Assembly: GCA_000004695.1 (NCBI GenBank)
Contig: CM000154.2
Coordinates: forward strand, 3,232,001-3,296,000
Source: Dictyostelium discoideum
Taxonomy: Eukaryota
Direction: 5' to 3'
Length of the DNA: 64,000 nucleotides
Shown here: positions 27,811 through 55,939 of the stretch, one piece after another
Numbering within the stretch: the first letter of the stretch is position 1
Layout: each line of letters starts with the position of its first letter
Made by a program: the position numbers and the translations under genes
The notes under the pieces: generated by a model
The model's input: the letters and a program-made list of their open reading frames with translations, nothing else
What the model was told of the DNA's origin: nothing
Databases searched by the model: none

Positions 27811-27965
27811 ATTTTTTAACGAAAAACGAAAAAAGAAATAAACGAGAATTTATACATATAATAAATAAATCACTGTTATATCTTCACCGCCACATTCATT
27901 CCTCTTAATTTTACCCTTTTTTTGCTCATTAAAGCAAGGGCTATCGTCCTATATACTTTTCAACA

Positions 27966-29174: not shown

Positions 29175-32100
29175 GCTCAAAAATCAACTTTATAACATGG
29201 AATTGTAGAGGATTCACTGAAAACGCAAACAATCAACACAATTCCTACCAAAAAGCTGTTGACACACTACAACTACTTATATCAAAACTTCCACCTCGTC
29301 CAACAATCTCAATACTCACTGAACTCAATTCATCACCATTACAACTTAAACATGATTTTCCCGATCACATCATCTCTGTCACCAAAAGAGGAAATGGTGT
29401 AATAATCATTAACCATAACCCAAACACACTCAAACTCAAACACATATCAACAATTGATGGTAGAGCTATTTTAGCAGACGTTATATTTCCAAATCAATTA
29501 CCAATTGGTATTCTTGGAATTTACGCACCAGCATCAAATAATACCATCAAAAAGAATTCATATGCAACTTCACTACAAACACTTCTCCACAACCACTCAA
29601 CAAACCCAATACCAAACCAATCCCAACATGTATCTATTATCGCAGGAGATTTCAACTGTATCCACAACGACAATTCACTATTAGATGATATTATCCAATC
29701 CTACACATACCAACACCATCTAATTGATCAAGGTGAATTTAAAAACACTCCAACTCATACACATGGTAACAGATTAGATAGAATATATACCCAATACAAT
29801 AGAATAGACCCTGAAAATATATATACACAAGTCCACCAAATTCCATCTTCATTATCAGATCATAATCCAATATCAACAACAATTTCTTCACCTTTTCAAA
29901 TAAATAAACATAAGAAAAGATGGATATTATCACCTGGTACTGCAAATGACCATGAAGCAATCAATATTATCAATCATTTAATAACTAATCACAATAACAC
30001 ATCAATCAATCAATTTACAAACTGGTCAAAAGTAAAATCAAAAATTATTAAAACTCTAAAAAACTATCAATATAACAAAGACAAACAAACTCAACGTGCA
30101 AAACAAATACTATTAGAAAAAGCAGGAAAATTCAAACATCTTGAAGAACAATGCATCGCTGAATACAATATTATATGTAACAAAAACAAATTACATCAAA
30201 ACCACACAAACATATTAAAAAAACATATAAATGGAGAAATACCTAGCAAGTATCTATCAGCAATACTAAACAAAAGATCAAAAGATGCAAAAATTGAATC
30301 AATCCAATATGGCAACATCATTACATCCGACCCCGACCAAATTGAAAATGCGTTTGTTGAATTCTACACAAATCTATATAGCTTACAAATATGTTGTCCA
30401 ATTACTCACCAGCTCATGCTAAACACATGGCCCATCATAAAAAATGAATATTGGAATGGTTTAGACTCACCATTTATACAAGATGAAGTTGAAGCTGCAA
30501 TTAAAACCTGTAACCCCAACAAATCACCCGGTCCAGATGGCGTTACAAATGCATTCTACATTAATCATTTAAACCAAGTTAAACCAATTCTCACTACATT
30601 ATTCAACGATATACTAGAAAATCCTCACCACATCACAACAGAATTCACCGAAGGTCTTATACACACAATTTACAAGAAAGGCAACCCCTTACTCATATCA
30701 AATCGTCGTCCCATTACACTTCTTAACACTGATTACAAGATCCTCTCAAAAGTAATCAATGCACGTCTTCTGAGAATACTTCCTTTCATCATCAACAACA
30801 ACCAAACTGGTTTCGTACCCCACAGATTCATCATAGACAACATCATCAACATCAATGAATTAATAAACTACCTCAAATCTAAAAACCTCCCTGGTATCAT
30901 CACACTATTTGACTTCTTTAAAGCATTTGATTCTATCTCTCACGATAGCATTAAAAGAACATTAATTCATATTGGAATACCAATAAAATTAATAAATTTA
31001 ATCCACAAGCTATTATCTGACTCACAAGCAAAAATTTCAATTAATGGTAAAACGACCAGAAAATTCGATATTAAAAGAGGTGTAAAACAAGGTGACCCAA
31101 TCTCAGCCACTTTATTTGTAATTGTAATTGAAATATTAGCAAGAACAATAAATGCAGACAATTCAATAATTGGATTACCAATTTCACCCAATCCACAAAT
31201 TAAAATCAAATTTACCCAATTTGCAGACGACTCTACAACATACAACATCAACTACGAACAACAACAACAATCAATAATCAAACATTTCGATAATTTCTGC
31301 GCTTCAACATCATCATCTTTAAATTTTGACAAAAGTGCAATTATAGAAATCAACCCCCACAAAATCACTGATAAACACTTAATAAACAACATTCCACAAT
31401 CAAAAAGAATTCCAATAACCAAAAAAGATCAATCAGAAAGAGTTCTTGACTATTTCTTTAATCATAATGGTTTACATAGGAAATTACCAGAAACAATGAA
31501 AACACTGATTAAATCATTAGTGCTATGGAAAACTATTGGTACAACATTAAAAACAAAAACAACCATCATAAACACCTACTCACTATCACCAATAACATAT
31601 TTATCATACCTTGAAGAATTTACAAAAGATGAAGAAATTCAAATTAATAAATTAATCTCATGGTTTATGAATTCTCCCGCAAATTCTGAATCACCAACTC
31701 TCAATACCAATTCCATTGAAAACAACACATCAACCATCCATTCACGTGCAAAAATACCTTTGATGTGTTATGATAGATCATTAAAACCATTAAAAGAAGG
31801 TGGTTGGGGTATGTGGAATATACAATTACGACAAGTTGCTCAAAAGATTTGGATATACAACAGATTTTTACAAATGCATAAATCTGCAAACAATTCAATA
31901 TACATGATAAGTTGGATGGATCAAATCATCAACAAATCAATCTCTTCTCCATACCTTATAAAAATAAAAAAAGAATGGGAAAACTATGCAACTCAAATTG
32001 GACATCTAAAAGATAAAGTTCAAATCCTACAACCAATATTAACAAAAAACCAACCCTCTCAAACATTAAACACAAATAATATTTCACTACCACCAACACT

Positions 32101-33001
32101 CAAAGAAATCTACTCGACAATACTAAACAATCACCAATGCAAATCAAAAGACTATATTGGCAAGAAATATTCAGATCTACTTCTTACTCCGCACCAACAA
32201 TCAATACAATTATTATGGAAATACACATACGACCAACTTTTTGTCAAAATTCAAAAATTAAAAGATCCAAAAGGCCGTGATACAATGCAAAGATTCCATG
32301 CTAGATGTCTTCCGATTAATCATCTACACAACAAAGTTTGCCCCATTTGCAACAATGAAATGAATAATGATCCCTATGGTCATTTGTTTTTCAATTGTCA
32401 GCACACAATCAACTCCATTAACCACGACAAATTAAAATATTTTATATATAAAAATTGCAATGGAAACAAAAACTGGTCACTAACAAAAAACCAAACAACA
32501 AAATTATACACACTCATCTATAAACCACAAACAAACAACAAAGCATTTAAACCAGATCCAACTATCAATATTAATTTTCATTTTGCAGAAAACGCACAAT
32601 ATAAAAAATACAGGTTCAACTGGAATTATATAAACACAAATCTTGATCTAGTCAGAACACATGCATATTGGAACATAATCTCATTAGTTATTCACCAAAT
32701 ATGGATATGGTTATGCAAATCATTATTTGACATCAATATAACTCAATCAATTGATAATTGGAACAACCAAATAAACAACACAACACTAGATTATGATATA
32801 TTAAAATCAAAATGGCACAAGCTAATAAGATTGGAATATTCAAGAACTTTATCAAACTTTAACCAATACTCAATTAAAAACAACCTCACAAAAACTCAAA
32901 AAGAAACCCAATGGTCTGAAACCATCAAAAAATTTAAAAAAGAATGGAGCATAAACACAAATGAACCAATTCCAACAATTACACCACCAATTAATTATTA
33001 A
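29171..33001 (+). CDS. TRE3-like ORF2 (1276 aa): APE-type endonuclease, reverse transcriptase and a C-terminal Cys/His motif.
   Basis: The N-terminus reads ITWNCRGF...SDHNPIS, the EEP endonuclease. The RT block is ...PGPDGV...FADDSTTY (FADD equals the YxDD box). The Cys/His motif is CPICNNEMNNDPYGHLFFNCQH. Confidence 0.85.
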   Translation: MSSKINFITWNCRGFTENANNQHNSYQKAVDTLQLLISKLPPRPTISILTELNSSPLQLKHDFPDHIISVTKRGNGVIIINHNPNTLKLKHISTIDGRAILADVIFPNQLPIGILGIYAPASNNTIKKNSYATSLQTLLHNHSTNPIPNQSQHVSIIAGDFNCIHNDNSLLDDIIQSYTYQHHLIDQGEFKNTPTHTHGNRLDRIYTQYNRIDPENIYTQVHQIPSSLSDHNPISTTISSPFQINKHKKRWILSPGTANDHEAINIINHLITNHNNTSINQFTNWSKVKSKIIKTLKNYQYNKDKQTQRAKQILLEKAGKFKHLEEQCIAEYNIICNKNKLHQNHTNILKKHINGEIPSKYLSAILNKRSKDAKIESIQYGNIITSDPDQIENAFVEFYTNLYSLQICCPITHQLMLNTWPIIKNEYWNGLDSPFIQDEVEAAIKTCNPNKSPGPDGVTNAFYINHLNQVKPILTTLFNDILENPHHITTEFTEGLIHTIYKKGNPLLISNRRPITLLNTDYKILSKVINARLLRILPFIINNNQTGFVPHRFIIDNIININELINYLKSKNLPGIITLFDFFKAFDSISHDSIKRTLIHIGIPIKLINLIHKLLSDSQAKISINGKTTRKFDIKRGVKQGDPISATLFVIVIEILARTINADNSIIGLPISPNPQIKIKFTQFADDSTTYNINYEQQQQSIIKHFDNFCASTSSSLNFDKSAIIEINPHKITDKHLINNIPQSKRIPITKKDQSERVLDYFFNHNGLHRKLPETMKTLIKSLVLWKTIGTTLKTKTTIINTYSLSPITYLSYLEEFTKDEEIQINKLISWFMNSPANSESPTLNTNSIENNTSTIHSRAKIPLMCYDRSLKPLKEGGWGMWNIQLRQVAQKIWIYNRFLQMHKSANNSIYMISWMDQIINKSISSPYLIKIKKEWENYATQIGHLKDKVQILQPILTKNQPSQTLNTNNISLPPTLKEIYSTILNNHQCKSKDYIGKKYSDLLLTPHQQSIQLLWKYTYDQLFVKIQKLKDPKGRDTMQRFHARCLPINHLHNKVCPICNNEMNNDPYGHLFFNCQHTINSINHDKLKYFIYKNCNGNKNWSLTKNQTTKLYTLIYKPQTNNKAFKPDPTININFHFAENAQYKKYRFNWNYINTNLDLVRTHAYWNIISLVIHQIWIWLCKSLFDINITQSIDNWNNQINNTTLDYDILKSKWHKLIRLEYSRTLSNFNQYSIKNNLTKTQKETQWSETIKKFKKEWSINTNEPIPTITPPINY

Positions 33002-36014: not shown

Positions 36015-37207
36015 TTATTTGCCTTTTTTTAATAATGTTTCAGATTTTTCTTTATTTTCATAACCTTTACAATTTAATAACATATCAGAGTAAGAAATAA
36101 TTGATTTGATAAAACTATATTTAACACCCAATTCGTAATAGTATTCACTCTTTTCTAAATCTATATCTATACCATCAATACCAAATTGAAATAAATAACC
36201 AAGTGAATTCAAAGACTCTAAAACATATATATTTGAATCTGTAAAGAATGAGCTATCACCATAATCATCTTGATCATCATCATCAAAATGAAGTGGTTTA
36301 AGACTTGCTTCATATAATAATGATAAACCAATGTTTGAATCTTTCTTTAATTTATCTACACCAACACCAATTAAATATAATGTTGAAAGATGAAAAAACC
36401 CATTTGATATATTACTTTCTTTAATTGATTTTGAAAAATATTTATATGCATTTCTATAATCTTCATATTCAAACATATACTCTTCACCAACATTATTTAA
36501 ATGATTAATTGTAATACGATTTTGACTTAAACTAGTTGAAATCATTTCTTCAACCATACCCAATTGATCGATTAGTATTGGTAAATAGCCTTTAAAGAAT
36601 GAATTGAATTTATGTTTTTCAATGAATAATTTAGCTTCATTTTCAAAGTTTCTAATATCACCAAATAAAGTTGAATTTCTATAATTCAATTTTTCATTTA
36701 CCAATTTTTTAAAATCAGTTACCTCTTTACATGATGGATTTAATTGATCAGCAGCTCCTAAAAATTGAATTGATTCATTATATTTTCCTTGAAATGATAA
36801 AATTTGAGATAATCTAAAATAACTACGATAAAACAATGGTGATTGTTTCATTGATTCAAATGAGTCAATTTTACTTTCTTCCAAGAGTGATCTAAATTCA
36901 TTTGGTTCAAAATTATTTAACTCTCTTGATAAATGCACTTTTTCATATCCTTTTAATGAACTTAACTTATAATATTCAAATTTTGAAATTGATCTATTTA
37001 AATAAAGTAATGATTTTAATTCACATAAATCCATACCACTTTTTTCAATTGGTGATTCTTTATTATAACCATTTAATTGATCAATACCCTTTGTATAATA
37101 TTCAATTGCTAAATTATAATTTTTTTTTGTATATTCAATATTACCAAGTTCTTTTAATTTAATTGATTCTTCAATTTTATTTTCTTTTTTTGTTGTGATT
37201 TTTGAGG

Positions 37208-37238
<31 letters not shown>

Positions 37239-37924
37239 ATTAGTGTTAGTTTTATTTGATAAATTTGATTTGGAATTTGGAATTTTATTAGTTGATTGTT
37301 GTGGTTTTTGAATATTTACTATATCCATAGTTTCAATTGATTGAATTGTATCTTCTAATTCACCTTTTAAATAATCATTCATTTCAATTAAAATATTAAT
37401 TAAATTTTGTTTTATATTTTTTAATTCACTTTCTTCAATTTTAAAATCTTTAATTAATATAACTTTTTTAAAAATTATAAAAAAAAAAAAAATATTGTTA
37501 ATTTTATAATTATTAATTTATTTTTAAAAGTAAATTAATTAATTAACTTACAATTATCATTAATTTGATTAATACTTGAAATTTGTTTATTTTCAAATGA
37601 TAATTTTTCTTTATCATTAATTTTGGTAAAATTGAAATTAATTAAAAGTGATGATAATAATTGTACATTGAAAGAATTGAGGTTTCCATTTGAAATAATA
37701 CTTTTTTGATAAAAATTATGGTCATTTGTTAAACAATTTGAATTGGTAAAGTGAGGATTCATACAAAGGAATTTATAAATTAACTCTCCATACTCTTTAC
37801 AATCTACCCAAGGTTTACCAATTTCAATTAACCAACGTTCTTTAAATTTATTTTCTAAAATTTGTTTAATCTTGATATTAATAATATTTGATAATTTAAA
37901 ATAATTAATAATATTATTTTTCAT
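36015..37924 (-). CDS. TPR/Sel1-like repeat protein. Two exons: 37552-37924 and 36015-37462. The intron is 89 nt (GTAAGT..AAAAAG). There may be a C-terminal extension to about 35894; see findings.
   Basis: Exon 1 (MKNNIINYFKL...) joins in frame through FILIKDFKIEESELKNIKQNLINILIE to the Met at 37382. TPR-like units appear as LKELGNIEYTKKNYNLAIEYYTKGI. Sel1-like units appear as GLSLLYEAS..., LGYLFQFGIDG and YYYELGVKYS. Confidence 0.55.
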
Positions 37925-38256: not shown

Positions 38257-41200
38257 TTAACCAAATTTTGGGAAATAATTCATTATTGTTTTCCAGTAAC
38301 TTTCTGGATGGGTTGAACAATGATTTTGATAAAAATGTATAAATAGTGTTCTAATTTGAGTAAGTCTTTGTTTTCTTCTTTCTTCAATCTCTTTGAAACT
38401 TAATGATTGACTATGATGACTATGTTGTTCATTTATATTTGATGTTGATTTTGATTTTTCATTATTATTATTATTTTGATTTTGATTTTGATTTTGATTT
38501 TGATTTTGATTTTGATTTTGATTTTGACCAACTTTATTAAGATTATTAATTTGATTTACTTTATTATTTGGTTGATTTTTGGTATTAATTTGATTTTTTA
38601 AAGTATCAAAATATTTATTTTCAAAAGAGAAAGCATTATCCCAACTTTGAGCTAAGCAATCACTATCATTATCTTCATCATCTGAAACCAATTTATGAGA
38701 TTTATCCTCTTCAGTCTCTTCACTTTGTTCACTACCAGTGAAACTACTAGATGGATGATAATTCTTTGGAGTTGAACCACCACCACTATTCAATGAACCA
38801 ATAATTCTTTTTTCAGTGAATGAACCCATCAATTGCCAACTACCACCAATTTCTGGTTCAACTTGAATATCATCATCTGATCCTCTTCTTCTCTTTGGTC
38901 CATTTGGTACATCCATTGGTATACTCGTACCTGAAGTTGCTGGTGATGTATGTAATTGGTGATGACCATGATGACCATGATGTCCATGATGTGATTGTTT
39001 AATCATAATAGATGATGATCCAAAACTACCAGCTATATTATTATTACTATTCATTGGTGAGTGAGAAATTGGTGTTGGCGGAGCTGATGTATTATTATTA
39101 TTGGTACTATTATTGGTACTATTATTGTTAGTGTTATTATTATTATTAAAATTATTATTATTATTATTATTACCAACTTTATTCATACCAATAAATAATT
39201 TTGGAGAATTATTTTGAGGAGTTACTGGTGCAGATTGAGAAATATCAATACCTTTTGTATTCCAACTACTTGGTGAAGAGTTTTTGTGTCCACCAATATT
39301 ACTATTATTATTACTATTTGATTTGTTTGATTTGTTTATATTTTTTACATTATTATTATTATTATTATTATTGTCTACAATATTTTTTCTATCTACATAA
39401 TTATTTACAATCTCTAATGGTTGTTGAGAATTTGAATTTTTACGATTACCAGTTGGAGTATTACCTTTATTATTTACAGATTGTTGTGATTGTGCTTGTT
39501 GTAACTGTTGTTTTAGTAATCCCATACCACTATTATTTGTAGTTTGTTGTTTTTCTTGTTGTTTATCTTGTTGTTTATCTTGTTGTTGTTGTTGATTTAA
39601 TTTATTAAAAGTATGAATTGAAAAATCCATTGAAGAGATGAAATCCAAGAAATAAAAACAGAAATAAAATATATCTTCACCTTTACCAGCTCTATCACAA
39701 AGTTGATGAGAGAATAAGAACCAATCGTAGGCAACCGTTAAAAAGAGCATTTCCCAATCCTTTAAAGATTGATGAACCTCACCATCAGCCCAAAGACTGA
39801 TTCTAAGTAATGAAATAAACAATGGTGTTCTATCCCATCCAGATATACAATGAACTAATAAACCAGATGGGTTATTATCATCAGATACATATTTTAATAA
39901 TAACTTGAAATAATTTTGTGTTAAATTTACTATTAAAAAGAGAAAAAAAAAAAAAAAAAATAATAGTTAATATATATCTATTTTTTTTTTATTTTTTTAT
40001 TTTTTAATATTAATATACTTACTTAAATCCCAAGTTTTATAAGATTCCCATGGTATCATTGGTAATTGATGATCTGGATGTAAATTTAATTCTGCTGGAT
40101 CTTCAATACCATCCCAAGAATAAAATAAATCTTTTCCACAATGTTGATTTCTATTAAAATCTGCAAAAAATTCTACACCAGGATAAGGAGTAGAAGAAAT
40201 TACAAAATCTTGATATCTTCGATGCATATCAACTTTTTCTGATGAACAAACAAAGAAACCAAACCTTTTTTTTTTTTTTTTAAAAAAATAAAAAATAAAA
40301 ATAAAGGTTAATGAAATTTGTTTTTATTATAATTATTATTATTATTTATTACTTACTTTTTCTTTTTATTTTCAACCATTAAATCACAAATGTATCTAAT
40401 ATTTAAATGTTTAATAACTAGAATATCATTATTTCTAAGATGTTCCATATCTAATTGTTGTTGTGCCTGTTGTTGTCGTATTTGAGTTGACTGTTGTTGT
40501 GCTTGTTGTTGATCATGTTGGCCTTCAACATGTGAATCATGATGTTGATAATGTTGATTAATAACTGAAGAAGTCATTGTACTATCATTTTTATTTAATC
40601 TATCAATATCAATTGAATCTTCAATCATACTATTAGTAATTGGATTATTTTGATTATTATTATTATTATTATTTTGATTATTATTATTATTATTAATTTG
40701 ATTATTATTATTATTTTGATTATTATTATTATTTTGATTATTATTATTATTACTAAACATTATAGATTGTGATAAAGAAGAAGTTGTTGGAGATGGAACA
40801 GAAGAAAATTGTTTTTTCATTGAATTAACACCAGATTGAAACATATATTCAATCTTTTGAGAGAGTGTTGAGGATCTACAAAGATTTTTATGATGATAAA
40901 ATATAACTGGAAATGGGAATCTTGTTCTTACACGTGCAAATCTAGATTGATCCAATAATTTTTCTAAATTACGAGAGAGTTCTGGATGAACGTGTTTATT
41001 CTTTTCTTTACATACTTTACATCCTGTCTCTAACTCGTGTTCAATAAAAATTAAATCTGGTGGGTATGTTGCGCATAATTCACCTTCTTTATTATTGATT
41101 AATGATATTTTATAATCTTTTTCAAATAATGTATTTACAATTTCTTGATATTTAAATAATTCCTTGTTTTTTTGTTTTGTTGTTGTTTTGTTTTAAATTA

Positions 41201-41762
41201 ATTAAATAATAAAAAAAAAAAAAAATTATTTAATATTAATATATATAATTATATAATATTAATAATAATTATTTTAAACTTACTTCATCTCTTTTACCAG
41301 GGAATGGTTGTTTATATCTTCTAAAATGAGCAAACATTTCGGCTAATTCAGATGCCAATGAATCACCACATGCAAGCGAGGGGTTAACTTCAAAAGAGTT
41401 CATTGTATTGGCATCGTTTGTCGTATTATCACCATTTGACGATATATCTTCAGAGACAACTATAGATGGTTCATCATCGTCATTGCTATTGATTGTGTTA
41501 TTATTATAGGAAACGAATTCTCTCTACTTATATTGCAAGTATTATTATTACTACTGCTGTCACTATTATTATTATTGTTTTTATTATTATTATTATTATT
41601 GTTATTATTATTATTATTACTGCTGCTGTTACTACTACTACCACTACTATCGTTTTCGACAGATTTTTTAGGGGATTGTGAACAAGGTGTATTTGAAGGC
41701 TTTATTGAAGAAATTAATTGTTCTGTTGTTGAGGATGGTGGTGTGCTAGAGGTAATTACCAT
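38257..41762 (-). CDS. Myotubularin-family phosphoinositide phosphatase (MTMR14/Jumpy-like, no GRAM domain evident). Four exons: 41285-41762, 40358-41162, 40024-40264, 38257-39929. The exon-1 copy contiguous here carries a frameshifting deletion.
   Basis: The catalytic P-loop is LVHCISGWDRTPLFISL (CX5R; compare myotubularin VHCSDGWDRT). The upstream motifs are GELCATYPPDLIFI and FPVIFYHHKN (compare ELCDTYP and IPAVIYRH). The N-terminal exon is S/N-rich. All intron donors are GTAAGT. The long Q/N-rich C-terminal exon ends at 38257. Confidence 0.65.
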
Positions 41763-41849
41763 TTTAATGGATTTGTTTTTTTAATGAGGTGAAAGTAATT
41801 GAGCGTATTCCTAGTGTGTGTCTTTTTTTTTTTTTTTTTTTTTTTTTTT

Positions 41850-41949
41850 NNNNNNNNNNNNNNNNNNNNNNNNNNNNNNNNNNNNNNNNNNNNNNNNNNN
41901 NNNNNNNNNNNNNNNNNNNNNNNNNNNNNNNNNNNNNNNNNNNNNNNNN
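41850..41949. other. Assembly gap (100 N).
   Basis: A literal run of 100 N. The sequence on either side (41130-41849 and 41950-43020) forms near-identical tandem copies. Confidence 0.95.
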
Positions 41950-42463
41950 TTCAAATAATGTATTTACAATTTCTTGATATTTAAATAATTCCTTGTTTTT
42001 TTGTTTTGTTGTTGTTTTGTTTTAAATTAATTAAATAATAAAAAAAAAAAAAAATTATTTAATATTAATATATATAATTATATAATATTAATAATAATTA
42101 TTTTAAACTTACTTCATCTCTTTTACCAGGGAATGGTTGTTTATATCTTCTAAAATGAGCAAACATTTCGGCTAATTCAGATGCCAATGAATCACCACAT
42201 GCAAGCGAGGGGTTAACTTCAAAAGAGTTCATTGTATTGGCATCGTTTGTCGTATTATCACCATTTGACGATATATCTTCAGAGACAACTATAGATGGTT
42301 CATCATCGTCATTGCTATTGATTGTGTTATTATTATTATTTGGTATTATTGGTGATATTGGACTTGGAATATCTTCATTGTTATTACTATTATTATTATT
42401 ATTATTATTTACATTTGGTTCATATGATACTTTTTTAAATTGCTTTGGTATATATGTATTTTC

Positions 42464-42505
<42 letters not shown>

Positions 42506-43020
42506 GTTATTGTTATTAGTACAATTATAGCTTTCATTTATTAAAATTTCGGATTTAGAATTTAATATCTCTTCATTTCTGCTGTTGTTATTATTATTGT
42601 CACAACTATTATTATTATTACTATTATTATAGGTTTCATTATTCTCTTCTACAGCAACTGCTTCTTCTAATGTTAAATCCATCATGAAAGGAAACGAATT
42701 CTCTCTACTTATATTGCAAGTATTATTATTACTACTGCTGTCACTATTATTATTATTATTATTGTTTTTATTATTATTATTATTATTATTATTGTTATTA
42801 TTATTATTATTATTATTACTGCTGTTACTACTACTACCACTACTATCGTTTTCGACAGATTTTTTAGGGGATTGTGAACAAGGTGTATTTGAAGGCTTTA
42901 TTGAAGAAATTAATTGTTCTGTTGTTGAGGATGGTGGTGTGCTAGAGGTAATTACCATTTTAATGGATTTGTTTTTTAATGAGGTGAAAGTAATTGAGCG
43001 TATTCCTAGTGTGTGTCTTT
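41950..43020. repeat. Segmental duplicate of the phosphatase exon 1, the first intron, and about 100 bp of the 3' end of the 805-bp second coding exon. The paralogous copies are 41130-41849 and 46880-47950.
   Basis: The three stretches are near-identical by direct comparison of long stretches. Each is followed by similar AT-rich spacer and then by a B-box/FNIP gene. Confidence 0.7.
42098..42958 (-). CDS. Intact copy of the first coding exon of the myotubularin-like gene (286 codons, MVITSSTPPSS...FPGKRDE, followed by a GTAAGT donor). It is separated from the catalytic exons by the gap.
   Basis: It is identical to 41460-41762, except that it retains about 352 bp (the FMMDLTLEEAVAVEENNETYNN...DDDEP stretch) that the 41.3-41.8 kb copy has lost. 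An identical intact copy exists at 47027-47887. Confidence 0.5.
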
Positions 43021-43553
43021 TTTTTTTTTTTTTTTTTTTTTTGGTTTTTTTTTTTTTTTAATTTATTTATTATTTTTTTTTTTTATTTTTTCTATTTTTT
43101 TTTATATTTTTTATTTTATTTTTTTTTTTTTTTATTTTGGTTTTTTTGAGTTTAACTTAATAAAAAAAAAAATAAAAAAAAATAAAAAAAAATAAAAAAT
43201 AAAAATTAAAAAAAAAAAAAAAAAAAAAAAAATAAAATAAAATAAAATAAAAAAAAAAATAAAGATAAACCTGAAAAAGAGAAATGATTATTTAAATATA
43301 CCTCTTTTTTTTTTAAGATTTAATTTTATATGTATTCAATATTTTTTATTTTAAAATTTAAATATCCATTTACAAACCAATTTTCAAAATTATTATTCAA
43401 GTTATCCAATAAAAATAGGCAATTTTCAATGACTAAAAAGGAAATACCATAAAGTTAAGATAGAATTAAATACATAATTAAGGAATTGATTTTTTTATTT
43501 TTTTTTTTTTTATTGGAATTGTTTAATTTAACCTAATGTTATTTTTCTGAATT

Positions 43554-45147
43554 CTATTTAATTATTTTTACATTTTTTGAAACATAAGGTTCAATTTGAT
43601 GTTTAAAACTTGTGAAAACTTTTACTTCCTTTACAGTATTAGGAATTGAACCAATTATTAATTCTTGTTTAATATCGCCTAAACGCAACGATTCAACACC
43701 ATCTGGTAATATACCTGGTGTTAATTTTTGATTGAATCCATCTTTTAAAGTAACACGAGTTACAGTATTAGGAATTGAACCAATTATTAATTCTTGTTTA
43801 ATATCGCCTAAATACAAGGATTTAACACCATCTGGTAATATACCTGGTGTTAATTTTTGATTGAATCCATCTTTTAAAGAGACAAGAGTTACAGTATTAG
43901 GAATTGAACCAATCATTAATTCTTGTTTAATATCGCCTAAATACAACAATTTAATACTATCTGGTAATATACCTGGTGTTAATTTTTGATTGAATCCATC
44001 CAATAAAGAGACATGAGTTACAGTATTAGGAATTGAACCAATCATTAATTCTTGTTTAATATCACCTAAATACAAGGATTTAACGCCATCTGGTAATATA
44101 CCAGGTGTTAATTTTTGATTGAATCTATCCAAGAGCATTACAGTAGATGGTAATTGATTTTTTAATTTTGATAAAATATTACAATTGTCTTTGAATGCTA
44201 TACCTTCATTCTCCTTAAATTTAAATGAATCATCCTCTATATAAACATAAAACTTTGAACTATCCCCTATATTTGGTAATTAGAATGATGTAAACATAAT
44301 TTATAAAAAAAACTGTATAAAGCTTACATTTAAAAAATTTATTTTTATTTTCATCGATTTCAATTATAAATCTACAATTATCTAAGGTATAAATTGATTT
44401 TAAATTATTTTTAATATCATCAATTATTTGATTATGGAAATGAATGATTTGATTATCGTATTCATTTAATTTATTTGAATTATTGATATTATTATTATTA
44501 TTTAATACTATTAATGATTGTTGATATTGTTTAATAATTTTAATTGTATCTCTATCAATAATAAAATCTTCTCCATTATCATAAATTTGTTGATCATTAA
44601 ATTTTATAATTTCATTTAATTTTTCAATAGTTGTAGTTCTATCATTTTCATTTTCATTATTATTATTAATTATAGTTGAAAGTATTTGATTATCATTATT
44701 GATTGAAGAAGTTATAATTGTATTTATTAATGTATTATTTTCAAAGGTTGTTTCTAATTGTTTTTTAATATCTAATTCTATGATTGAAATGATATCATGA
44801 ATTTTTTTAATTTCTTTTTTTAATGAATTATTATTAATATCAAATTGTGATTGAATTTCATTGTATTTATCATTTGATTCTTGTAATATTGTTTCATTGA
44901 TTTCTATTCTTTCAATTACTTTTTGGTATATATCATTTTTAAAATTATTCATTAATGAAAGAATATTTGAAGTTGATTCTAATGGATCAGTTTTATGACC
45001 ATGATGTTCACCTTTACTTGATGTACATTGAATACAACATGGTATTAATTTACAATCTAAACAAAAGAATACTATATCTTTATTTGGGTGAAGTGTACAC
45101 TTTTTATTATTATCAATATTATTTATTTTATTATGATTTGAAATCAT
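43554..45147 (-). CDS. B-box zinc finger / coiled-coil / FNIP-repeat protein, copy F2 (about 509 aa). Exons are 44328-45147 and 43554-44266. The intron is 61 nt (GTAAGC..ATAG), phase 1.
   Basis: The B-box reads [51 protein letters not shown]. The coiled-coil is [55 protein letters not shown]. The FNIP exon has 4.5 double repeats and ends KEVKVFTSFKHQIEPYVSKNVKIIK. The track start at 45222 (MVSHIKISGSKFFFFFF) is upstream poly-A read-through. The true ATG is at about 45147. Confidence 0.7.
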
Positions 45148-45906
45148 TGTGTTTGGGATTGGTGTGGATGTAAAAAAAAAAAAAAAAAATTTGGAACCAG
45201 AAATTTTTATATGAGACACCAAAAATAAAAAAAAATAAAAAAAATAAAAATAAAATCGCTTAAAAAATTAAGAAAAACAAAATCTTTTTTTTTTTTTTTT
45301 TTTAAAAAATAAATAAATAATTAAATATTTATATTGTTATTGATAAAAATTTAAAAAAAGGAAAAATATTTTGAATTCAATCGTTAATCATTTTTTTTTT
45401 ATAAAAAAAAAAGATATAATTTAATTATATATACAATGTTTTTTAAATCTCTATTTTTGGAACATTTTAATAGTAAATTAAATTTAAATATGTTTGCTGA
45501 CATTAATATGGCTGCTGAAATTAATATGCATGTAAATTAATATGGATGCTAAAATTAATATGGGACACACTATTGGCAATTTTAAATCACTAAAAAATAT
45601 CATCATGGTACAGCGGATCAATTAAATGGATTTTGTAATTTGAGGGTAAAAACAAATTTACTCAAACCTGGAATTAAATATACCTAAACCCATTCAAATG
45701 TTACCATTTGACGCCATATGGTAGTAAACTACTATTAATCATATTGATTATTTTATTTAAATTTTCAATTAAAACATTACAATGAGCAGTTTTGCGATGA
45801 TTTGCTTTTTTAAAACTCTGTTGGAAAATTATTAATATTTATTATATTTGATGTTATTTCTTCATTTTATCTTGTTTTGTCATGATTAGTAGGTTGGCTG
45901 TACCTG

Positions 45907-46441
45907 TTAACAGTAGTTTCTTACACTCTTTACAGTATTAGGAATTGAACCAATCATTAATTCTTGTTTAATATCACCTAAATACAACCATTCAACACTA
46001 TCTGGTAATATACCTGGTGTTATTTTTTGATTGAATTCATTCAATAAAGAGACACTCGTTACAATATTAGGGATTGATCCAATCTCCAATTCTTGTTTAA
46101 TATCGCCTAAACTCAACCATTTAACACCAACTGGTAAAATGCCTGGTTTTAATCTTTGATTGAATCCATCCAATAAAGAGACATGAGCTACAGTATTAGG
46201 AATTGAGCCAATTATTAATTCTTGTTTAATATCACCTAAATACAAGGATTTAACACCAACTGGTAAAATGCCTGGTGTTAATTTTTGATTGAATCCATCC
46301 AATAGCATTACATTTGATGGTAATTGATTTTTTAATTTTGATGATGAAATATTACAATTGTCTTTGAATGCTATACCTTCATTCTCCTTAATTTTAAATG
46401 AATTACCCTCTATATAAATATAAAACTTTAAATTATCCCCT
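45907..46441 (-). pseudogene. 3' fragment of a B-box/FNIP paralog: three FNIP double repeats plus the intron and exon-1 tail. It fuses at about 46441 to a myotubularin-gene fragment.
   Basis: ORF 45907-46308 reads LLDGFNQKLTPGILP... and ends SVRNYC (the type-II tail, as in F0). Upstream sequence matches the paralog intron, ...ctatataaatataaaactttaaattatcccct. It then switches abruptly to aatgttgattaataactgaagaagtcattg, which is the same as 40547-40580. Confidence 0.5.
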
Positions 46442-46446
46442 AATGT

Positions 46447-46543
46447 TGATTAATAACTGAAGAAGTCATTGTACTATCATTTTTATTTAATCTATCAATA
46501 TCAATTGAATCTTCAATCATACTATTAGTATTGGATTATTTTG

Positions 46544-46594
<51 letters not shown>

Positions 46595-47392
46595 TTGATT
46601 ATTATTATTATTTTGATTATTATTATTATTATTACTAAACATTATAGATTGTGATAAAATATAACTGGAAATGGGAATCTTGTTCTTACACGTGCAAATC
46701 TAGATTGATCCAATAATTTTTCTAAATTACGAGAGAGTTCTGGATGAACGTGTTTATTCTTTTCTTTACATACTTTACATCCTGTCTCTAACTCGTGTTC
46801 AATAAAAATTAAATCTGGTGGGTATGTTGCGCATAATTCACCTTCTTTATTATTGATTAATGATATTTTATAATCTTTTTCAAATAATGTATTTACAATT
46901 TCTTGATATTTAAATAATTCCTTGTTTTTTTGTTTTGTTGTTGTTTTGTTTTAAATTAATTAAATAATAAAAAAAAAAAAAAATTATTTAATATTAATAT
47001 ATATAATTATATAATATTAATAATAATTATTTTAAACTTACTTCATCTCTTTTACCAGGGAATGGTTGTTTATATCTTCTAAAATGAGCAAACATTTCGG
47101 CTAATTCAGATGCCAATGAATCACCACATGCAAGCGAGGGGTTAACTTCAAAAGAGTTCATTGTATTGGCATCGTTTGTCGTATTATCACCATTTGACGA
47201 TATATCTTCAGAGACAACTATAGATGGTTCATCATCGTCATTGCTATTGATTGTGTTATTATTATTATTTGGTATTATTGGTGATATTGGACTTGGAATA
47301 TCTTCATTGTTATTACTATTATTATTATTATTATTATTTACATTTGGTTCATATGATACTTTTTTAAATTGCTTTGGTATATATGTATTTTC

Positions 47393-47434
<42 letters not shown>

Positions 47435-47887
47435 GTTATTGTTATTAGTACAATTATAGCTTTCATTTATTAAAATTTCGGATTTAGAATTTAATATCTC
47501 TTCATTTCTGCTGTTGTTATTATTATTGTCACAACTATTATTATTATTACTATTATTATAGGTTTCATTATTCTCTTCTACAGCAACTGCTTCTTCTAAT
47601 GTTAAATCCATCATGAAAGGAAACGAATTCTCTCTACTTATATTGCAAGTATTATTATTACTACTGCTGTCACTATTATTATTATTATTATTGTTTTTAT
47701 TATTATTATTATTATTATTATTGTTATTATTATTATTATTATTATTACTGCTGTTACTACTACTACCACTACTATCGTTTTCGACAGATTTTTTAGGGGA
47801 TTGTGAACAAGGTGTATTTGAAGGCTTTATTGAAGAAATTAATTGTTCTGTTGTTGAGGATGGTGGTGTGCTAGAGGTAATTACCAT
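46447..47887 (-). pseudogene. Partial duplicate (5' fragment) of the myotubularin-like gene. It holds exon 1 intact, intron 1, and a rearranged piece of exon 2, with internal deletions.
   Basis: 47027-47887 equals 42098-42958, an identical 286-codon exon. 46660-46960 equals 40905-41170. 46447-46660 equals 40547-40765 with the (AAT)n altered. About 135 bp between two gataaa repeats is missing. The copy lacks the catalytic exons. Confidence 0.5.
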
Positions 47888-48630
47888 TTTAATGGATTTG
47901 TTTTTTAATGAGGTGAAAGTAATTGAGCGTATTCCTAGTGTGTGTCTTTTTTTTTTTTTTTTTTTTTTTTTTGGTTTTTTTTTTTTTTTAATTTATTTAT
48001 TATTTTTTTATTTTATTTTTTCTATTTTTTTTTTATATTTTTTATTTAAATTTTTTTTTTTTTTTTTTTTTTTTATTTTGGTTTTTTTTGAGTTAAACTT
48101 AATAAAAAAAAAAAAAATAAAAAAAAAATAAAAAATAAAAATTAAAAAAAAAAAAAAAAAAAAAATAAAATAAAATAAAAAAAAAATAAAGATTAACCTA
48201 AAAAAAGAAATGATTATTTAAATATCCCTCTTTTTTTTTTTAAGATTTAATTTTATATGTATTCAATATTTTTTATTTTAAAATTTAAATATGTTAAAAC
48301 ACTCTTTTTTTTTTTTTTTTTTTTTTTTTTTCAAGATTCAATTAAACACTGCCCTCTAAAGGAATAAAAGTAACAGTAATGTAAGTATTAAAAAAATTTT
48401 CAATATTATGCAAATTTCCATTATACTATCCTGATTTTTTTGAAATTTCAAAAAAAAAAAATATCTTTTTACAAATTATTATTCAAGTTATCTAATAAAA
48501 ATAGGCAATTTTCAATGACTAAAAAGGAAATACCATAAAGTTAAGATAGAATTTCCCAATTAAATACATAATTAAGGAATTGATTTTTTTTTTTTTTTTT
48601 TTTATTGGAATTGTTTAATTTAACCTAATG

Positions 48631-50518
48631 TTATTTTTCTGAATTCTTTTTAATTATTTTTACATTTTTTGAAACATAAGGTTCAATTTGATGTTTAAAA
48701 CTTGTGGAAACATTTACTTCCTTTACAGTATTAGGAATTGAACCAATTATTAATTCTTGTTTAATATCGCCTAAATTCAACGATTCAAAACCATCTGGTA
48801 ATATACCTGGTGTTAATTTTTGATTGAATCCATCTTCTAAAGTGACACGAGTTACAGTATTAGGAATTGAACCAATTATTAATTCTTGTTTAATATCACC
48901 TAAATCCAACGATTCAACACTATCTGGTAGAATACCTGGTGTTAATTTTTGATTGAATCCATCTTCTAAAGAGACATTCTTTACAGTATTAGGAATTGAA
49001 CCAATCATTAATTCTTGTTTAATATCACCTAAATCCAACGATTCAACACCTTCTGGTAGAATATCTGGTGTTAATATTTGATTGAATCCATCTTCTAAAG
49101 AGACAAGAGTTACAGTATTAGGAATTGAACCAATCATTAATTCTTGTTTAATATCACCTAAATACAACCATTTAACACTATCTGGTAATATACCTGGTGT
49201 TAATTTTTGATTGAATCCATCTTTTAAAGAGACAAGAGTTACAGTATTAGGAATTGATCCAATAATTAATTCTTGTTTAATATCACCAAAAAACAACCAT
49301 TCTACGCCATTTGGTAAAATACCTGGTGTCAATTTTTGATTGAATCCATCCAATAAAGAGACACGAGTTACAGTATTAGGAATTGAACCAATTATTAATT
49401 CTTGTTTAATATCACCTAAATACAAGGATTTAACGCCATCTGGTAATATACCAGGTGTTAATTTTTGATTGAATCCATCCAATAGCATTACATTTGATGG
49501 TAATTGATTTTTTAATTTTGATAAAATATTACAATTGTTTTTGAATGCTGTACCTTCATTCTCCTTAAATTTAAATGAATCACCCTCTATATAAACATAA
49601 AACTTTAAATTATCCCCTATATTTGGTTATTAGAATGATGTAAACATAATTTATAAAAAAAACTGTATAAAGCTTACATTCAAAAAATTCATTATTATTT
49701 TCATCGATTTCAATTTTAAATCTACAATTATCTAAGGTATAAATTGATTTTAAATTATTTTTAATATCATCAATTATTTGATTATGGAAATGAATGATTT
49801 GATTATCATATTCATTTAATTTATTTGAATTATCGATATTATTATTATTATTTAATACTATTAATGATTGTTGATATTGTTTAATAATTTTAATTGTATC
49901 TCTATCAATAATAAAATCTTCTCCATTATCATAAATTTGTTGATCATTAAATTTTATAATTTCATTTAATTTTTCAATGGTTGTAATTCTATCATTTTCA
50001 TTTTCATTTTCATTTTCATTTTTATTATTTTTATTATTAATTATAGTTGAAAGTATTTGATTATCATTATTGATTGAAGAAGTTATAATTGTATTTATTA
50101 ATGTATTATTTTCAAAGGTTTTTTCTAATTGTCTTTTAATATCTAATTCTATGATTGAAATGATGTCATGAATTTTTTTAATTTCTTTTCTTAATGAATT
50201 ATTATTATTATCAAATTGTGATTGAATTTCATTGTATTTATCATTTGATTCTTGTAATATTGTTTCATTGATTTCTATTCTTTCAATTACTTTTTGATAT
50301 ATATCATTTTTAAAATTATTCATAAATGAAAGAATATTTGAAGTTGATTCTAATGGATCAGTTTTATGACCATGATGTTCACCTTTACTTGATGTACATT
50401 GAATACAACATGGTATTAATTTACAATCTAAACAAAAGAATACTATATCTTTATTTGGGTGAAGTGTACATTTTATATTATTATCAATATTATTTATTGT
50501 ATTATGATTTGATACCAT
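48631..50518 (-). CDS. B-box / coiled-coil / FNIP-repeat protein, copy F3. Exons are 49678-50518 and 48631-49616. It has about 6.5 FNIP double repeats.
   Basis: [24 protein letters not shown]...B-box...coiled-coil. The intron is GTAAGC..ATAG. The FNIP exon (285 codons in the track) ends ...KEVNVSTSFKHQIEPYVSKNVKIIKKNSEK. Confidence 0.7.
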
Positions 50519-51154
50519 TGTGTTTGGGATTGGTGTGGATGTATTGAGAACCGGTTCTCAATCAATCGCACAACCTATTTATCAAACTAATCAAGGTATA
50601 AAAATGCAACTATAAATGTTACTATGTAAATACAACCATTCAACACTATCTGGTAATATATGTGGTGTTAGTTTTTGATTGAATCCATTTTTTAAATAGA
50701 CATGTGTCCCATGCCAAAATAAAACGAAACTTCATCTGTTAGTAACAAAAGAGTAAGCAGAAGAGTCAATAATTAAAATAAAAAATATTATTTTAATTTT
50801 TTTTTTTTTTTTTTTTTTTTATTTTTTTTTATTTTTTTTTATTTTTAATTTTTTATTTATAATTTTTTTTTTTTGTGAGCCGGCTAGACATAAATGAATA
50901 ATAAAAAAATATATACCAACTAAAAAAAAAAGAAATGAAAATAAATTATAAAATTAATAATAAAAATAAAAAGATAAAAATAAATAAAAGATATAAATAA
51001 AATAATATGAAAATTTTTTTTTTTTTTTTTATATTATTATAATTATTTTTTTTTAGTTGATATATATTTTTTTAATAATAATTTTAGTGCTAAAATTTTG
51101 TTTATATTTGAGATGATTATTAATTAAATGACTTTGACTTTTTTTTTTTTTCTA

Positions 51155-51321
51155 TGCCAAAATTACCATATTAATTTCAGCAGCCATATTAATTTCGGCA
51201 GCTATGTACATGCTGAAATTAATATGGCTGCTGAAATTAATACGGTAATTTTGGCAGACGTAAGTCCCATGCCAAAATTAATATGGCTGCTGAAATTAAT
51301 ATGGTAATTTTGGCATGGGAC
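51155..51321. repeat. Nested inverted-repeat (hairpin or MITE-like) structure built from ATTAATATGGCTGCTGAAATTAATA units.
   Basis: A 48-nt arm TGCCAAAATTACCATATTAATTTCAGCAGCCATATTAATTTCGGCAGC, then a TATGTACAT centre, then its reverse complement. A second palindrome follows: GTCCCATGCCAAAATTA...TAATTTTGGCATGGGAC. Related motif copies sit at 45495-45575. GTCCCATGCCAAAAT recurs at 50705. Confidence 0.6.
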
Positions 51322-51949
51322 AAATAAATAAGGAATAAATTATTTAAAAAAAATAAAAATTCTTATATTTTAATATTTTTTATTTAAATATTTATTGTAC
51401 ACCCATTATTTTTTATCATTTTATTATAGTTTTTAATAATATACAATATCATATATTAAACTATAATTTAATGTTTTAAAAAATGAGAAATTACAATAGT
51501 ATTATTTCCTATTAATTGTTGTATATTATTAAATTATAGTTTTATGTTTTAAAAAATGAGAAATTACAATAGTATATTGTGGTAAATCAATAAATTTTTT
51601 ATAATTTAATGACAAATTAATATTCAATTTTAATTAAATAATTTTAGATTTTATCAATTTTTAATTTATTAAAATATATTTTTATTATGGCCAGATTCTT
51701 TTTTATTATTTTATGATAATGTGTGATTAATTATTAATTAGAAATTGATATTAGTTTGTTAAAAATTTTATTACATTATAATATCGTTTCTTAAAATATG
51801 AGTTTTTGCGGTAGTTTAATTTCTCACAAAATAGTAAAATTTCTTAGGTTTTTTTTCTCTGGTGAATACATAATTAAGGAATTGATTTTTTTTTTTTTTT
51901 TTTTTTTATTGGAATTGTTTAATTTAACCTAATGTTATTTTTCTGAATT

Positions 51950-54211
51950 CTATTTAATTATTTTTACATTTTTTGAAACATAAGGTTCAATTTGATGTTT
52001 AAAACTTGTGGAAACATTTACTTCCTTTACAGTATTAGGAATTGAACCAATTATTAATTCTTGTTTAATATCGCCTAAATTCAACGATTCAACACCATCT
52101 GGTAATATACCTGGTGTTAATTTTTGATTGAATCCATCTTCTAAAGTGACACTCTTTACAGTATTAGGAATTGAACCAATTATTAATTCTTGTTTAATAT
52201 CACCTAAATCCAACGATTCAACACTATCTGGTAGAATACCTGGTGTTAATTTTTGATTAAATCCATCTTCTAAAGAGACATGAGTTACAGTATTAGGAAT
52301 TGAACCAATCATTAATTCTTGTTTAATATCACCTAAATACAACGATTCAACACCTTCTGGTAGAATACCTGGTGTTAATTTTTGATTGAACCTATCTTCT
52401 AACGAGACATTCGTTACAGTATTAGGAATTGAACCAATTATTAATTCTTGTTTAATATCGCCTAAATACAACAATCCAACACTTTCTGGTAATATACGTG
52501 GTGTTAATTTTTGATTGAATCCATCTTTTAAAGAGACACTCGTTACAGTATTAGGAATTGAACCAATTATTAATTCTTGTTTAATATCACCTAAATACAA
52601 CAATCCAACACTTTCTGGTAAAATACCTGGTGTTAATATTTGATTGAATCCATCTTCTAAAGAGACAAGAGTTACAGTATTAGGAATTGAACCAATCATT
52701 AATTCTTGTTTAATATCACCTAAATACAACAATTTAACACTATCTGGTAATATACCTGGTGTTAATTTTTGATTGAATCCATCTTTTAAAGAGACAAGAG
52801 TTACAGTATTAGGAATTGATCCAATAATTAATTCTTGTTTAATATCACCTAAATCCAACAATTTAATACTATCTGGTAATATACCTGGTGTTAATTTTTG
52901 ATTGAATCCATCTTTTAAAGTGACACGAGTTACAGTATTAGGAATTGAACCAATCATTATTTCTTGTTTAATATCACCTAAATACAACCATTCAACACTA
53001 TCTGGTAAAATACCTGGTGTTAATTTTTGATTGAATCTATCCAATAAAGAGATATGAGTTACAGTATTAGGAATTGAACCAATCATTAATTCTTGTTTAA
53101 TATCACCTAAATGCAACAATTTAACACTATCTGGTAATATACATGGTGTTAATTTTTGATTGAATCCATCTTTTAAAGAGACACGAGTTACAGTATTAGG
53201 AATTGAACCAATTATTAATTCTTGTTTAATATCGCCTAAATCCAACAATTTAATACTATCTGGTAATATACCTGGTGTTAATTTTTGATTGAATTCATCT
53301 TTTAAAGATACACGAGTTACAGTATTAGGAATTGAACCAATCATTATTTCTTGATTAATATCACCTAAATACAACCATTCAACACTATCTGGTAATATAC
53401 CTGGTGTTAATTTTTGATTGAATCCATCTTTTAAAGAGACAAGAGTTACAGTATTAGGAATTGAACCAATTATTAATTCTTGTTTAATATCACCTAAATA
53501 CAAGGATTTAACACCATCTGGTAATATACCTGGTGTTAATTTTTGATTGAATCCATCTTTTAAAGAGACATGGATTACAGTATTAGGAATTGAACCAATC
53601 ATTAATTCTTGTTTAATATCACATAAATCCAACAATTTAATACTATCTGGTAATATACCTGGGGTTAATTTTTGATTGAATCTATCCAATAAAGAGATAT
53701 GAGTTACAGTATTAGGAATTGAACCAATTATTAATTCTTGTTTAATATCGCCTAAATCCAACAATTTAATACTATCTGGTAATATACCTGGTGTTAATTT
53801 TTGATTGAATTCATCTTTTAAAGATACATGAGTTACAGTATCAGGAATTGAACCAATTATTAATTCTTGTTTAATATCACCTAAATACAAGGATTTAACA
53901 CAATATGGCAATATACCTGGTGTTAATTTTTGATTGAATCTATCCAATAAAGAGATATGGATTACAGTATTAGGAATTGAACCAATCATTAGTTCTTGTT
54001 TAATATCACCTAAATACAAGGATTTAATACTATCTGGTAATATGCATGGTGTTAATATTTGATTGAATCCATCCAATAAAGAGACATGGATTACAGTATT
54101 AGGAATTGAACCAATTATTAATTCTTGTTTAATATCACCTAAATACAAGGATTCAACGCCATCTGGTAATATACCAGGTGTTAATTTTTGATTGAATCCA
54201 TCCAATAGCAT
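51950..54211. repeat. Tandem array of about 17.5 x 129-bp coding repeats (FNIP double units) with high nucleotide identity between units.
   Basis: The unit ...gaatccatc...ggtgttaatttttgattgaatccatc... recurs every 129 nt over 2.26 kb. Shorter arrays of the same unit occur in F1, F0, F2, F3 and F5. Confidence 0.8.
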
Positions 54212-55220: not shown

Positions 55221-55620
55221 TTTGTTTGGGGTTAATGTTGATTTAAAAAAAAAAAAAATTTGTTTTCGGAAATTTTTATATGAGACTTAATCCACCACCA
55301 AAAATCAAAAAAAAAAAATAAAAATAAAATCACTTAAAAAATTAAGAAAAAAAAAAACAAAATCATTTTTTTTTTTTATAATATTATTATTAAATAATTA
55401 AATAATTAAATATTTTTATTATTATTGATAATTTTTTGAAAAAAAAGAAAAATATTTTGAGTTAAATAATTAATCATTTTTTTTTATAAAAAAAAAAAGA
55501 TATTGCAACAAGATCTCAAAAATATCTTGTTAATACTAACATTTATTTAATTTCATGAAATGTTCTAAATTTAATTTTCAAAAAAAAAAAAAAAAATTTT
55601 TAATTATAATTTCAATTTCA

Positions 55621-55824
55621 CAATAGATATTAGATACCAGATATTAAAATGTCACACAACTTCAACAACTACAATAACATATTCAATTAGTTAATCAACA
55701 AACACAACAACGTCAACAACAACTAAATAATCACTCAACACCACCATCGTCACCTAATGTTACAACACCAATAACTTCAGCAACAATAACCAACACAATA
55801 GATATCTGGTATCTAATATCTATT
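55621..55824. repeat. MITE-like element or hairpin: about 200 bp bounded by 24-bp perfect inverted repeats.
   Basis: The left end at 55621-55644 is CAATAGATATTAGATACCAGATAT. The right end at 55801-55824 is ATATCTGGTATCTAATATCTATTG, its exact reverse complement. The interior is about 155 bp, A/C-rich and non-coding. Confidence 0.45.
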
Positions 55825-55939
55825 GTATGAAATTATTGTAAAATATTTGATGTTATTTCTTCATTTTATCTTGTTTTGCCATATGATTAGTGGGTTGGTT
55901 GTACCTGTTAATGGTAGTTTCTTGAATAGGAAATTCTTC

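Follow-up and report, generated by a model that had tools for sequence, protein, structure and literature searches.

In the 64-kb stretch of Dictyostelium discoideum DNA analysed here (the window), a predicted lipid phosphatase gene on the minus strand is interrupted near its 5' end by a run of Ns. A copy of its first exon stands on each side of that run; the copy contiguous with the catalytic exons carries a frameshifting deletion, and the copy across the gap is intact. The question raised by this locus is whether the phosphatase has really lost part of its first exon amid a series of tandem duplicates, or whether the two exon copies are a single stretch of DNA that was assembled twice and left unmerged.

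The gap and its duplicated flanks

The sole N-run in the window (41850-41949, unstranded) is exactly 100 N long, which is the fixed length customarily placed as a spacer between two contigs when the size of the gap is unknown. Both contigs meeting at this run carry the 5' end of the phosphatase gene on the minus strand. Copy L (41121-41849), which forms the end of the left contig, comprises the first 42 bp of exon 2, intron 1 (41163-41283), a deleted exon 1 (41284-41762) whose reading frame stops at 41460 after 100 codons, and the 5' leader. Copy R (41950-43365), the start of the right contig, comprises the same 42 bp of exon 2, intron 1 (41992-42112), an intact exon 1 of 282 codons (42113-42958), and upstream intergenic DNA. 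When the window was compared with itself, 41121-41507 proved identical to 41950-42336 (100% over 387 bp), and alignment of 41508-41847 with 42689-43042 gave 94.9% identity. The alignment on copy L stops at 41847-41849, within 2 bases of the N-run and in a terminal poly-T run of at least 30, and copy R begins at the first base past the gap (41950). The duplicated sequence thus runs to both edges of the N-run; taken as overlapping contig ends, the two flanks would overlap by about 0.73 kb counted on copy L and about 1.09 kb on copy R. An earlier note, made from the sequence alone, had placed the intact exon directly beyond the 100-N gap, as is indeed the case. It had also described a tandem, near-identical arrangement of 41130-41849 and 41950-43020; the duplication itself is confirmed, but it starts at 41121, and a third copy had been missed.

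The flanks differ by a 352-bp indel, four microsatellite length differences, and two homopolymer length differences, a pattern that fits either errors or a very young paralogue. The 352-bp segment (42337-42688, minus strand) encodes residues ~90-207; it is present in copy R as well as in the third copy, referred to below as copy C, and is missing from copy L. Alignment to copy R bears out the earlier statement that copy L lacks about 352 bp and that this length is not a multiple of three (352 mod 3 = 1), and exon 1 of copy L is frameshifted as a result. The premature stop reported within 41460-41762 is likewise present, the minus-strand open reading frame ending in ...ENSFPIIITQSIAMTMMNHL* after 100 aa; its counterpart on the right (42098-42958, minus strand) extends to 286 aa. 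The proposal that the segment had been deleted between tat/a microhomologies does not hold for a single event, as the edges of the deletion are T/A and T/A, the gap cannot slide, and no microhomology is found. The loss could alternatively be written as two steps, one of 294 bp between ATT runs with a 9-nt homology (TATTATTAT) and one of 58 bp with an AGG homology. The 12-mer TATTATTATAGG, which spans the junction in copy L, also occurs within the deleted segment, at 42622 and 47551.

The remaining differences are confined to repeats. The three ATT tracts read (ATT)4/6/5 in copy L and (ATT)6/8/7 in copy R, so each is exactly two units shorter in copy L, and the GCT tract is one unit longer there, (GCT)2 against (GCT)1. 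Copy L is also longer by a single T at the T7 run (41776), and its terminal poly-T of at least 30 compares with 25 in copy R. With all differences taken together, exon 1 of copy L is 367 bp shorter than that of copy R. In unique sequence, the alignment of copies L, R, and C contains zero base substitutions.

The usual reproducibility of such repeats was gauged on GCA_054883475.1 (record CM142511.1, 5.29 Mb), an independent assembly with essentially an identical genotype, in which the open reading frame at 14114-15559 is annotated. The comparison covered 21.4 kb outside the phosphatase locus (window positions 4033-25568, corresponding to 3,324,011-3,345,456 of CM142511.1), with no Ns in the fetched sequence, and gave 99.53% identity. 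All 29 differences fall in long intergenic poly-A/T runs, nearly all of them shorter in GCA_054883475.1, and neither trinucleotide-repeat changes nor large indels were seen over the 21.4 kb, despite several coding (AAT)n tracts. Microsatellite lengths are therefore normally reproducible, which makes the changes in copy L anomalous: at least six slippage-type events in 730 bp of contig end are far above this background. Long homopolymers are trouble spots between assemblies, and the left contig ends in one. Exact-match scans of a metagenome contig collection, with breakpoint-adjacent and exon-2 sequence as probes, gave no matches.

The phosphatase and its first exon

With exon 1 taken from copy R, the gene consists of four minus-strand exons at 42958-42113, 41162-40357, 40264-40023, and 39929-38257 (stop included), and translation of the spliced model gives an uninterrupted open reading frame of 1,188 aa. 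Its three introns (121, 92, and 93 bp) are all of the GT..AG type with GTAAGT donors. When exon 1 of copy L (41762-41284) is joined to exons 2-4 instead, the frame is broken and a stop follows after 100 codons. The end of exon 1 had previously been put at 42098; the GTAAGT donor lies instead at 42113 in copy R and at 41284 in copy L. Exons 2-4 contain no stop across about 900 codons in a genome of 22% GC, an indication that selection has maintained the gene.

MTMR14 (hJumpy) is a phosphoinositide 3-phosphatase of the myotubularin family that acts on PtdIns3P and PtdIns(3,5)P2, and the product of the present gene is predicted from sequence to be an MTMR14/Jumpy-type phosphatase. In a homology search with the catalytic region, animal MTMR14 proteins aligned at 51-57% identity over about 96% of the 224-aa query (E 1e-66 to 3e-72), and the named proteins that match the catalytic domain best are the MTMR14s of many animals. 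A Vannella homologue has 55% identity over 226 aa. There was no dictyostelid among the matches to this query; the source species' own proteins seem to be absent from the protein collections searched. The P-loop of the active site, VHCISGWDRTP, is encoded in exon 4, and its CISGWDR fits both the CX5R pattern and CXXGWDR, the active-site signature of myotubularins (PMC6563779). A Pfam scan of the 1,188-aa model detected no PH or GRAM domain, and the MTMR14 subgroup lacks the PH-GRAM domain, unlike all other myotubularins (PMC6563779). In the same scan, the myotubularin-like phosphatase family PF06602 was not reported at E<=0.01, the only hit being a sub-threshold Y_phosphatase3 (19.1 bits against a cut-off of 22.2 bits). 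PF06602 is present in two homologues (P0002 and P0003) and in most matches to the catalytic query; its absence here probably reflects a domain split by long low-complexity N/Q-rich inserts. These inserts, the total length of 1,188 aa, and an N-terminal extension of about 245 residues set the protein apart from MTMR14, which it resembles in catalytic-region identity, in the CISGWDR active site, and in the lack of a detectable PH/GRAM domain. Nothing specific on a dictyostelid MTMR14 was found in the literature.

The N-terminal extension, from residue 1 to about 245, is essentially exon 1, and the core that is conserved outside dictyostelids starts at about residue 259. An in-frame ATG at 41403 corresponds to M243, 16 residues ahead of the core shared with the Vannella homologue. 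An exhaustive HMMER search of 1.84 billion representative proteins matched the exon-1 extension to Dictyostelium purpureum only, and a protein homology search with the N-terminal 403 aa returned only D. purpureum and two distant homologues.

The D. purpureum orthologue is annotated as two separate proteins on GL871114.1, namely DICPUDRAFT_153794 (P0001) and an adjacent 743-aa model. The former has 47% identity across exon 1 and into the beginning of exon 2, taking in the segment that copy L lacks, and the downstream 743-aa model has 55-88% identity over the segments that align to exons 2-4. Within the 352-bp segment, FMMDLTLEEAV, SRNEEILNSKSEILINESYN, and YIPKQFKKVSY correspond to FLMDLAIEDSI, SRAEEILNSKSEILINESYN, and YIPKSFKKVTY in D. 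purpureum, and 19 of the 20 residues of SRNEEILNSKSEILINESYN are conserved in the orthologue. The D. purpureum gene is single-copy within its 21-kb locus, which differs from the present one in having neither an upstream array of B-box/FNIP-repeat genes nor a partial duplicate. That locus has a 100-N gap of its own, 257 bp upstream of the ATG, and the flanks of that gap are not duplicated. The earlier suggestion that the functional gene starts at 42958 is thus favoured on three counts, namely the 1,188-aa open reading frame, the conservation of the 352-bp segment in D. purpureum, and the identity of copies R and C.

A third copy within a repeat-gene array

The window self-comparison revealed that the 5' end of the gene has a further, partial copy, copy C (46441-48292, minus strand), about 4.9 kb upstream of the gene. 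It comprises part of exon 2, intron 1 (46921-47041), an intact exon 1 (47042-47887), and upstream DNA. Copies C and R are 100% identical over 1,067 bp (41950-43016 = 46879-47946), an identity that spans the exon-2 stub, intron 1, the whole of exon 1, and all microsatellites. Copies C and L are 100% identical over 614 bp (40894-41507 = 46652-47265), and the gene and copy C have a block of about 2.1 kb in common that is identical base for base. Farther upstream, the AT-rich DNA of copy R (43017-43365) differs from that of copy C (47947-48292) by eight substitutions and several indels. The idea that copies R and C are themselves one locus assembled twice was rejected on account of these upstream differences.

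The exon-2 part of copy C is equivalent to 40549-41162 minus 124 bp (40777-40900), the loss being a frameshifting deletion at a 7-bp direct repeat, TGATAAA (46652-46658). As it stands, copy C would encode 374 aa followed by a stop, and it has no catalytic exons. At about 46441-46443 it abuts a fragment of a B-box/FNIP-repeat gene (45907-46443, minus strand), and the join shows 2-3 bp of microhomology (...aaattatcccCTA / TAATGTTGATT...). This fragment consists of a repeat exon and an intron, and the intron joined to copy C forms the junction of the tandem duplication. Collinearity extends well beyond the phosphatase copies: 41950-45172 matches 46879-50543, with the two segments oriented alike and joined head to tail, as in a tandem segmental duplication. 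Two neighbours take part in it, both on the minus strand, namely B-box/FNIP-repeat gene A (43554-45222), directly upstream of copy R, and gene B (48631-50518), directly upstream of copy C. The two are collinear and 93-95% identical; gene B has FNIP repeats (E=1e-70) and a B-box zinc finger (E=2e-8), and the array extends to about 57.9 kb. Judged by its sequence, copy C appears to have arisen by a genuine tandem segmental duplication that took in the 5' end of the gene and its neighbour. As it is joined to the B-box/FNIP gene at a clean breakpoint, part of the repetition at this locus is probably biological.

One locus or several

Unmerged overlapping contig ends around a fixed 100-N gap are a known class of artefact in scaffolded assemblies. 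The present case resembles that class in its 100-N run, in a duplication that reaches both edges of the gap, in an overlap that is identical in unique sequence, and in a break that lies within a repeat and beside a long homopolymer. It departs from the class in two respects. One of the ends has a 352-bp deletion and contracted microsatellites, and a third copy that looks genuine lies nearby, so that tandem duplication has to be reckoned with. The choice between an artefact and a real deletion rests on inference, and we infer as the likely answer that copies L and R are two assemblies of one stretch, that is, unmerged contig ends around a 100-N spacer, that the deviations of copy L are technical, and that the intact exon 1 is real. 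This agrees with the earlier note, which had thought an assembly or gene-model problem likely; the clean 1,188-aa model, the identity of copies R and C, and the conservation of the deleted segment favour it without proving it. In addition, the intact exon 1 is found twice, in identical form (copies R and C), and the deleted one only once (copy L).

If copies L and R are one locus, the genome would contain a complete MTMR14-like gene with an R-type exon 1, and copy C would be the single partial tandem duplicate of that gene's 5' end. The exact repeat of about 2.1 kb that the gene and copy C have in common is a natural breakpoint for an assembly, and the contig break does fall inside it; an assembler lacking spanning reads would have been unable to cross the repeat and may have broken within it. 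The left contig would have entered the repeat from the side of the catalytic exons and halted in the poly-T run of at least 30, and the right contig would have entered it from the unique upstream side specific to copy R. The last ~340 bp of copy L conflict with the right contig because of the 352-bp deletion and the contracted ATT tracts; the ends would therefore have failed to merge, and the scaffolder would have inserted 100 N. Those last ~340 bp may be unreliable through an aberrant clone or read, or through a slippage-prone or poor consensus at a low-coverage end.

Several observations weigh against an assembly artefact. Base-calling or consensus errors do not typically take the form of one 352-bp deletion that lacks microhomology. 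The start of copy R is also a contig end and yet is free of errors, so this assembly does not have unreliable ends as a rule. An apparent overlap between contig ends will often arise by chance within a tandem array. Moreover, copy C indicates that real partial 5' duplications exist here, so that copy R could be a further unit of the same kind and the gap could be real. The real-looking 124-bp frameshifting deletion of copy C shows that such deletions do arise in this region.

These points lead to the strongest of the competing explanations, in which the three copies, like the gap, all exist in the genome: after a gene with a deleted exon 1 (copy L) there would come two or more partial 5' duplicates (copies R and C), each placed before a B-box/FNIP gene. 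The head-to-tail duplication of the 5' segment in copy C, with its clean junction, shows the kind of event required, and copies R and C each have a collinear FNIP gene next to them. Copy C bears a frameshifting deletion of its own, as copy L would. Furthermore, the base-substitution rate of the organism is very low, and at such a rate very recent paralogues would be expected to differ in microsatellites and indels alone. The strain would then be null for the phosphatase, or would make it as a 946-aa protein from M243 that lacks the lineage-specific extension and retains the entire enzyme core conserved outside dictyostelids; however, the mRNA for such a product would have a 100-codon upstream open reading frame ahead of M243. 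A further difficulty is that a segment conserved in D. purpureum would be missing from the sole copy with catalytic exons, whereas two dead-end fragments would have kept it perfectly. Copy L would also have gained at least six slippage events and copy R none with respect to copy C, although the flanks of R and C have diverged by about 5%. Finally, one more duplication event is needed than for overlapping ends of one locus. On balance, it seems unlikely that all the copies are real.

Should the deletion be real nonetheless, the strain's only MTMR14-type gene would have lost its N-terminal extension, and at least two intact copies of a 5' module, which consists of the promoter, exon 1, intron 1, and a piece of exon 2, would have spread within the FNIP array by tandem duplication, with gene conversion keeping them identical. 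One of these copies would be fused head-to-tail to an FNIP-repeat gene, and chimeric genes might be built from such a fusion. This outcome is regarded as distinctly unlikely.

A deletion might instead have been present in only part of the sequenced material, either a subclone of the culture or a cloned or amplified library, with both versions kept and laid side by side. The geometry of the overlap would be the same as for two assemblies of one intact locus, and the changes specific to copy L would all be contractions of the replication-slippage type, which AT-rich repeats are expected to undergo when propagated in culture, in E. coli, or by PCR. However, several independent changes would be required on one molecule, and sequencing of the haploid dictyostelids usually starts from clonal cultures, which makes this origin improbable. 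It is very improbable indeed that the end of copy L (41508-41849) derives from a degenerate exon-1 copy elsewhere and was joined chimerically to the true gene at an ATT repeat, since, although the changeover coincides exactly with an (ATT)n run and the junction 12-mer recurs inside the deleted segment, the 64-kb window holds no fourth copy and the sequence after the junction matches R and C at every unique position.

To return to overlapping ends of one locus, the deleted first exon is most likely not a biological feature, and the correct gene model probably joins exon 1 at 42958-42113 to exon 2 at 41162 and encodes 1,188 aa. The arrangement presents a hazard for annotation, as the phosphatase may be miscalled as a pseudogene, as an N-terminally truncated protein, or as two genes, and a spurious extra first exon may be counted. 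Since copy C appears to be a real partial duplicate, reads or PCR products that appear to confirm the intact exon, or both copies, may come from it. Only evidence that spans from exon 2 to copy-specific upstream DNA tells which exon 1 is joined to the catalytic exons. The surrounding biology, as read from the sequence, appears ordinary, namely a predicted conserved lipid phosphatase beside a rapidly rearranging array of repeat genes.

Some further content of the window may be recorded; together with the B-box/FNIP-repeat genes, it makes up a combination typical of Dictyostelium discoideum or a very close relative. Its G+C content is about 22%, with long homopolymers and AAT/ATT repeats. All genes within 10 kb of the phosphatase locus are spliced, and the open reading frames at 37535-37924 and 36015-37382 are two exons of one gene. 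The window also has an O-methyltransferase gene and an APE+RT non-LTR retrotransposon that adjoins a tRNA gene.

Copy C and its exact repeat with the phosphatase gene

Window 46441-48292 contains copy C, the third occurrence of the 5' end of the MTMR14-like phosphatase gene; it is partial and retains the promoter, the first exon and intron, and a portion of exon 2. This copy lies head-to-tail with a B-box/FNIP-repeat gene fragment and is fused to its intron, the junction falling at about 46441-46443 with a microhomology of 2-3 bp. Copy C has also lost 124 bp of its own at a 7-bp repeat, TGATAAA (46652-46658), which shifts the reading frame, and the predicted product would be a protein of 374 aa without the catalytic domain. 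Over about 2.1 kb, the gene (window 40894-41507 and 41950-43016) and copy C (46652-47946) are perfectly identical, with all microsatellites included, whereas on both flanks of this block identity is only 93-95%. Such an exact block within diverged flanks suggests either that the tandem duplicates have recently undergone gene conversion or that they were homogenised when the sequence was assembled or polished.

The surrounding B-box/FNIP-repeat array

At least four B-box zinc-finger/FNIP-repeat genes are arranged in a tandem array on the minus strand at window 43554-57894. Their FNIP repeat unit is 129 bp (43 aa) long, and the repeat exon is variable, encoding from 133 to 753 aa. The B-box exons are mosaics of one another, a pattern which suggests gene conversion. 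The fourth copy (57275-57841) is truncated within an ATT run, and an additional, inverted copy is located about 40 kb from the array at 2163-4026.

Comparison with D. purpureum and an independent assembly

At the D. purpureum locus (GL871114.1; positions 9560-9744 and 10001-13509 of the locus sequence), the phosphatase orthologue is one continuous gene by tblastn, despite being annotated as two proteins of 307 and 743 aa. Here too a 100-N gap is present, 257 bp upstream of the ATG. Comparison of its flanks revealed no duplication between them; the left flank consists of G+C-rich junk (…ccccccccgggccc…), which is typical of a poor-quality contig end. Additionally, the independent chromosome-scale assembly GCA_054883475.1 (CM142511.1:3324011-3345456) represents essentially the same genotype as window 4033-25568. 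The two differ in 29 events, confined to long poly-A/T runs, and in nearly all of these the run is shorter in GCA_054883475.1, the largest difference being 33 bases. It seems that homopolymers were either under-called in one assembly or over-called in the other.

Neighbouring genes, retrotransposon, and tRNA calls

The phosphatase gene is directly upstream of a minus-strand gene with TPR/Sel1-like sequence (36015-37924), whose two exons, the ORFs 37535-37924 and 36015-37382, are joined by an intron of about 90 bp (GTAAGT...AG). Farther along, a tRNA-Met(CAT) gene (27686-27760) is situated about 200 bp upstream of a non-LTR retrotransposon on the same strand (together 27686-33001). The element comprises ORF1 (27966-29174) and ORF2 (29171-33001), the latter with Exo_endo_phos and RVT_1 domains, and is similar to the TRE-type elements of Dictyostelium, which target tRNA genes. 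The ARAGORN call of a plus-strand tRNA-Ser(GGA) at 7486-7563 is probably a false positive; it sits in the formin coding region (ORF 5701-9105, opposite strand), approximately where, as estimated from the translation, the FH1 proline/glycine-rich repeats should be encoded.
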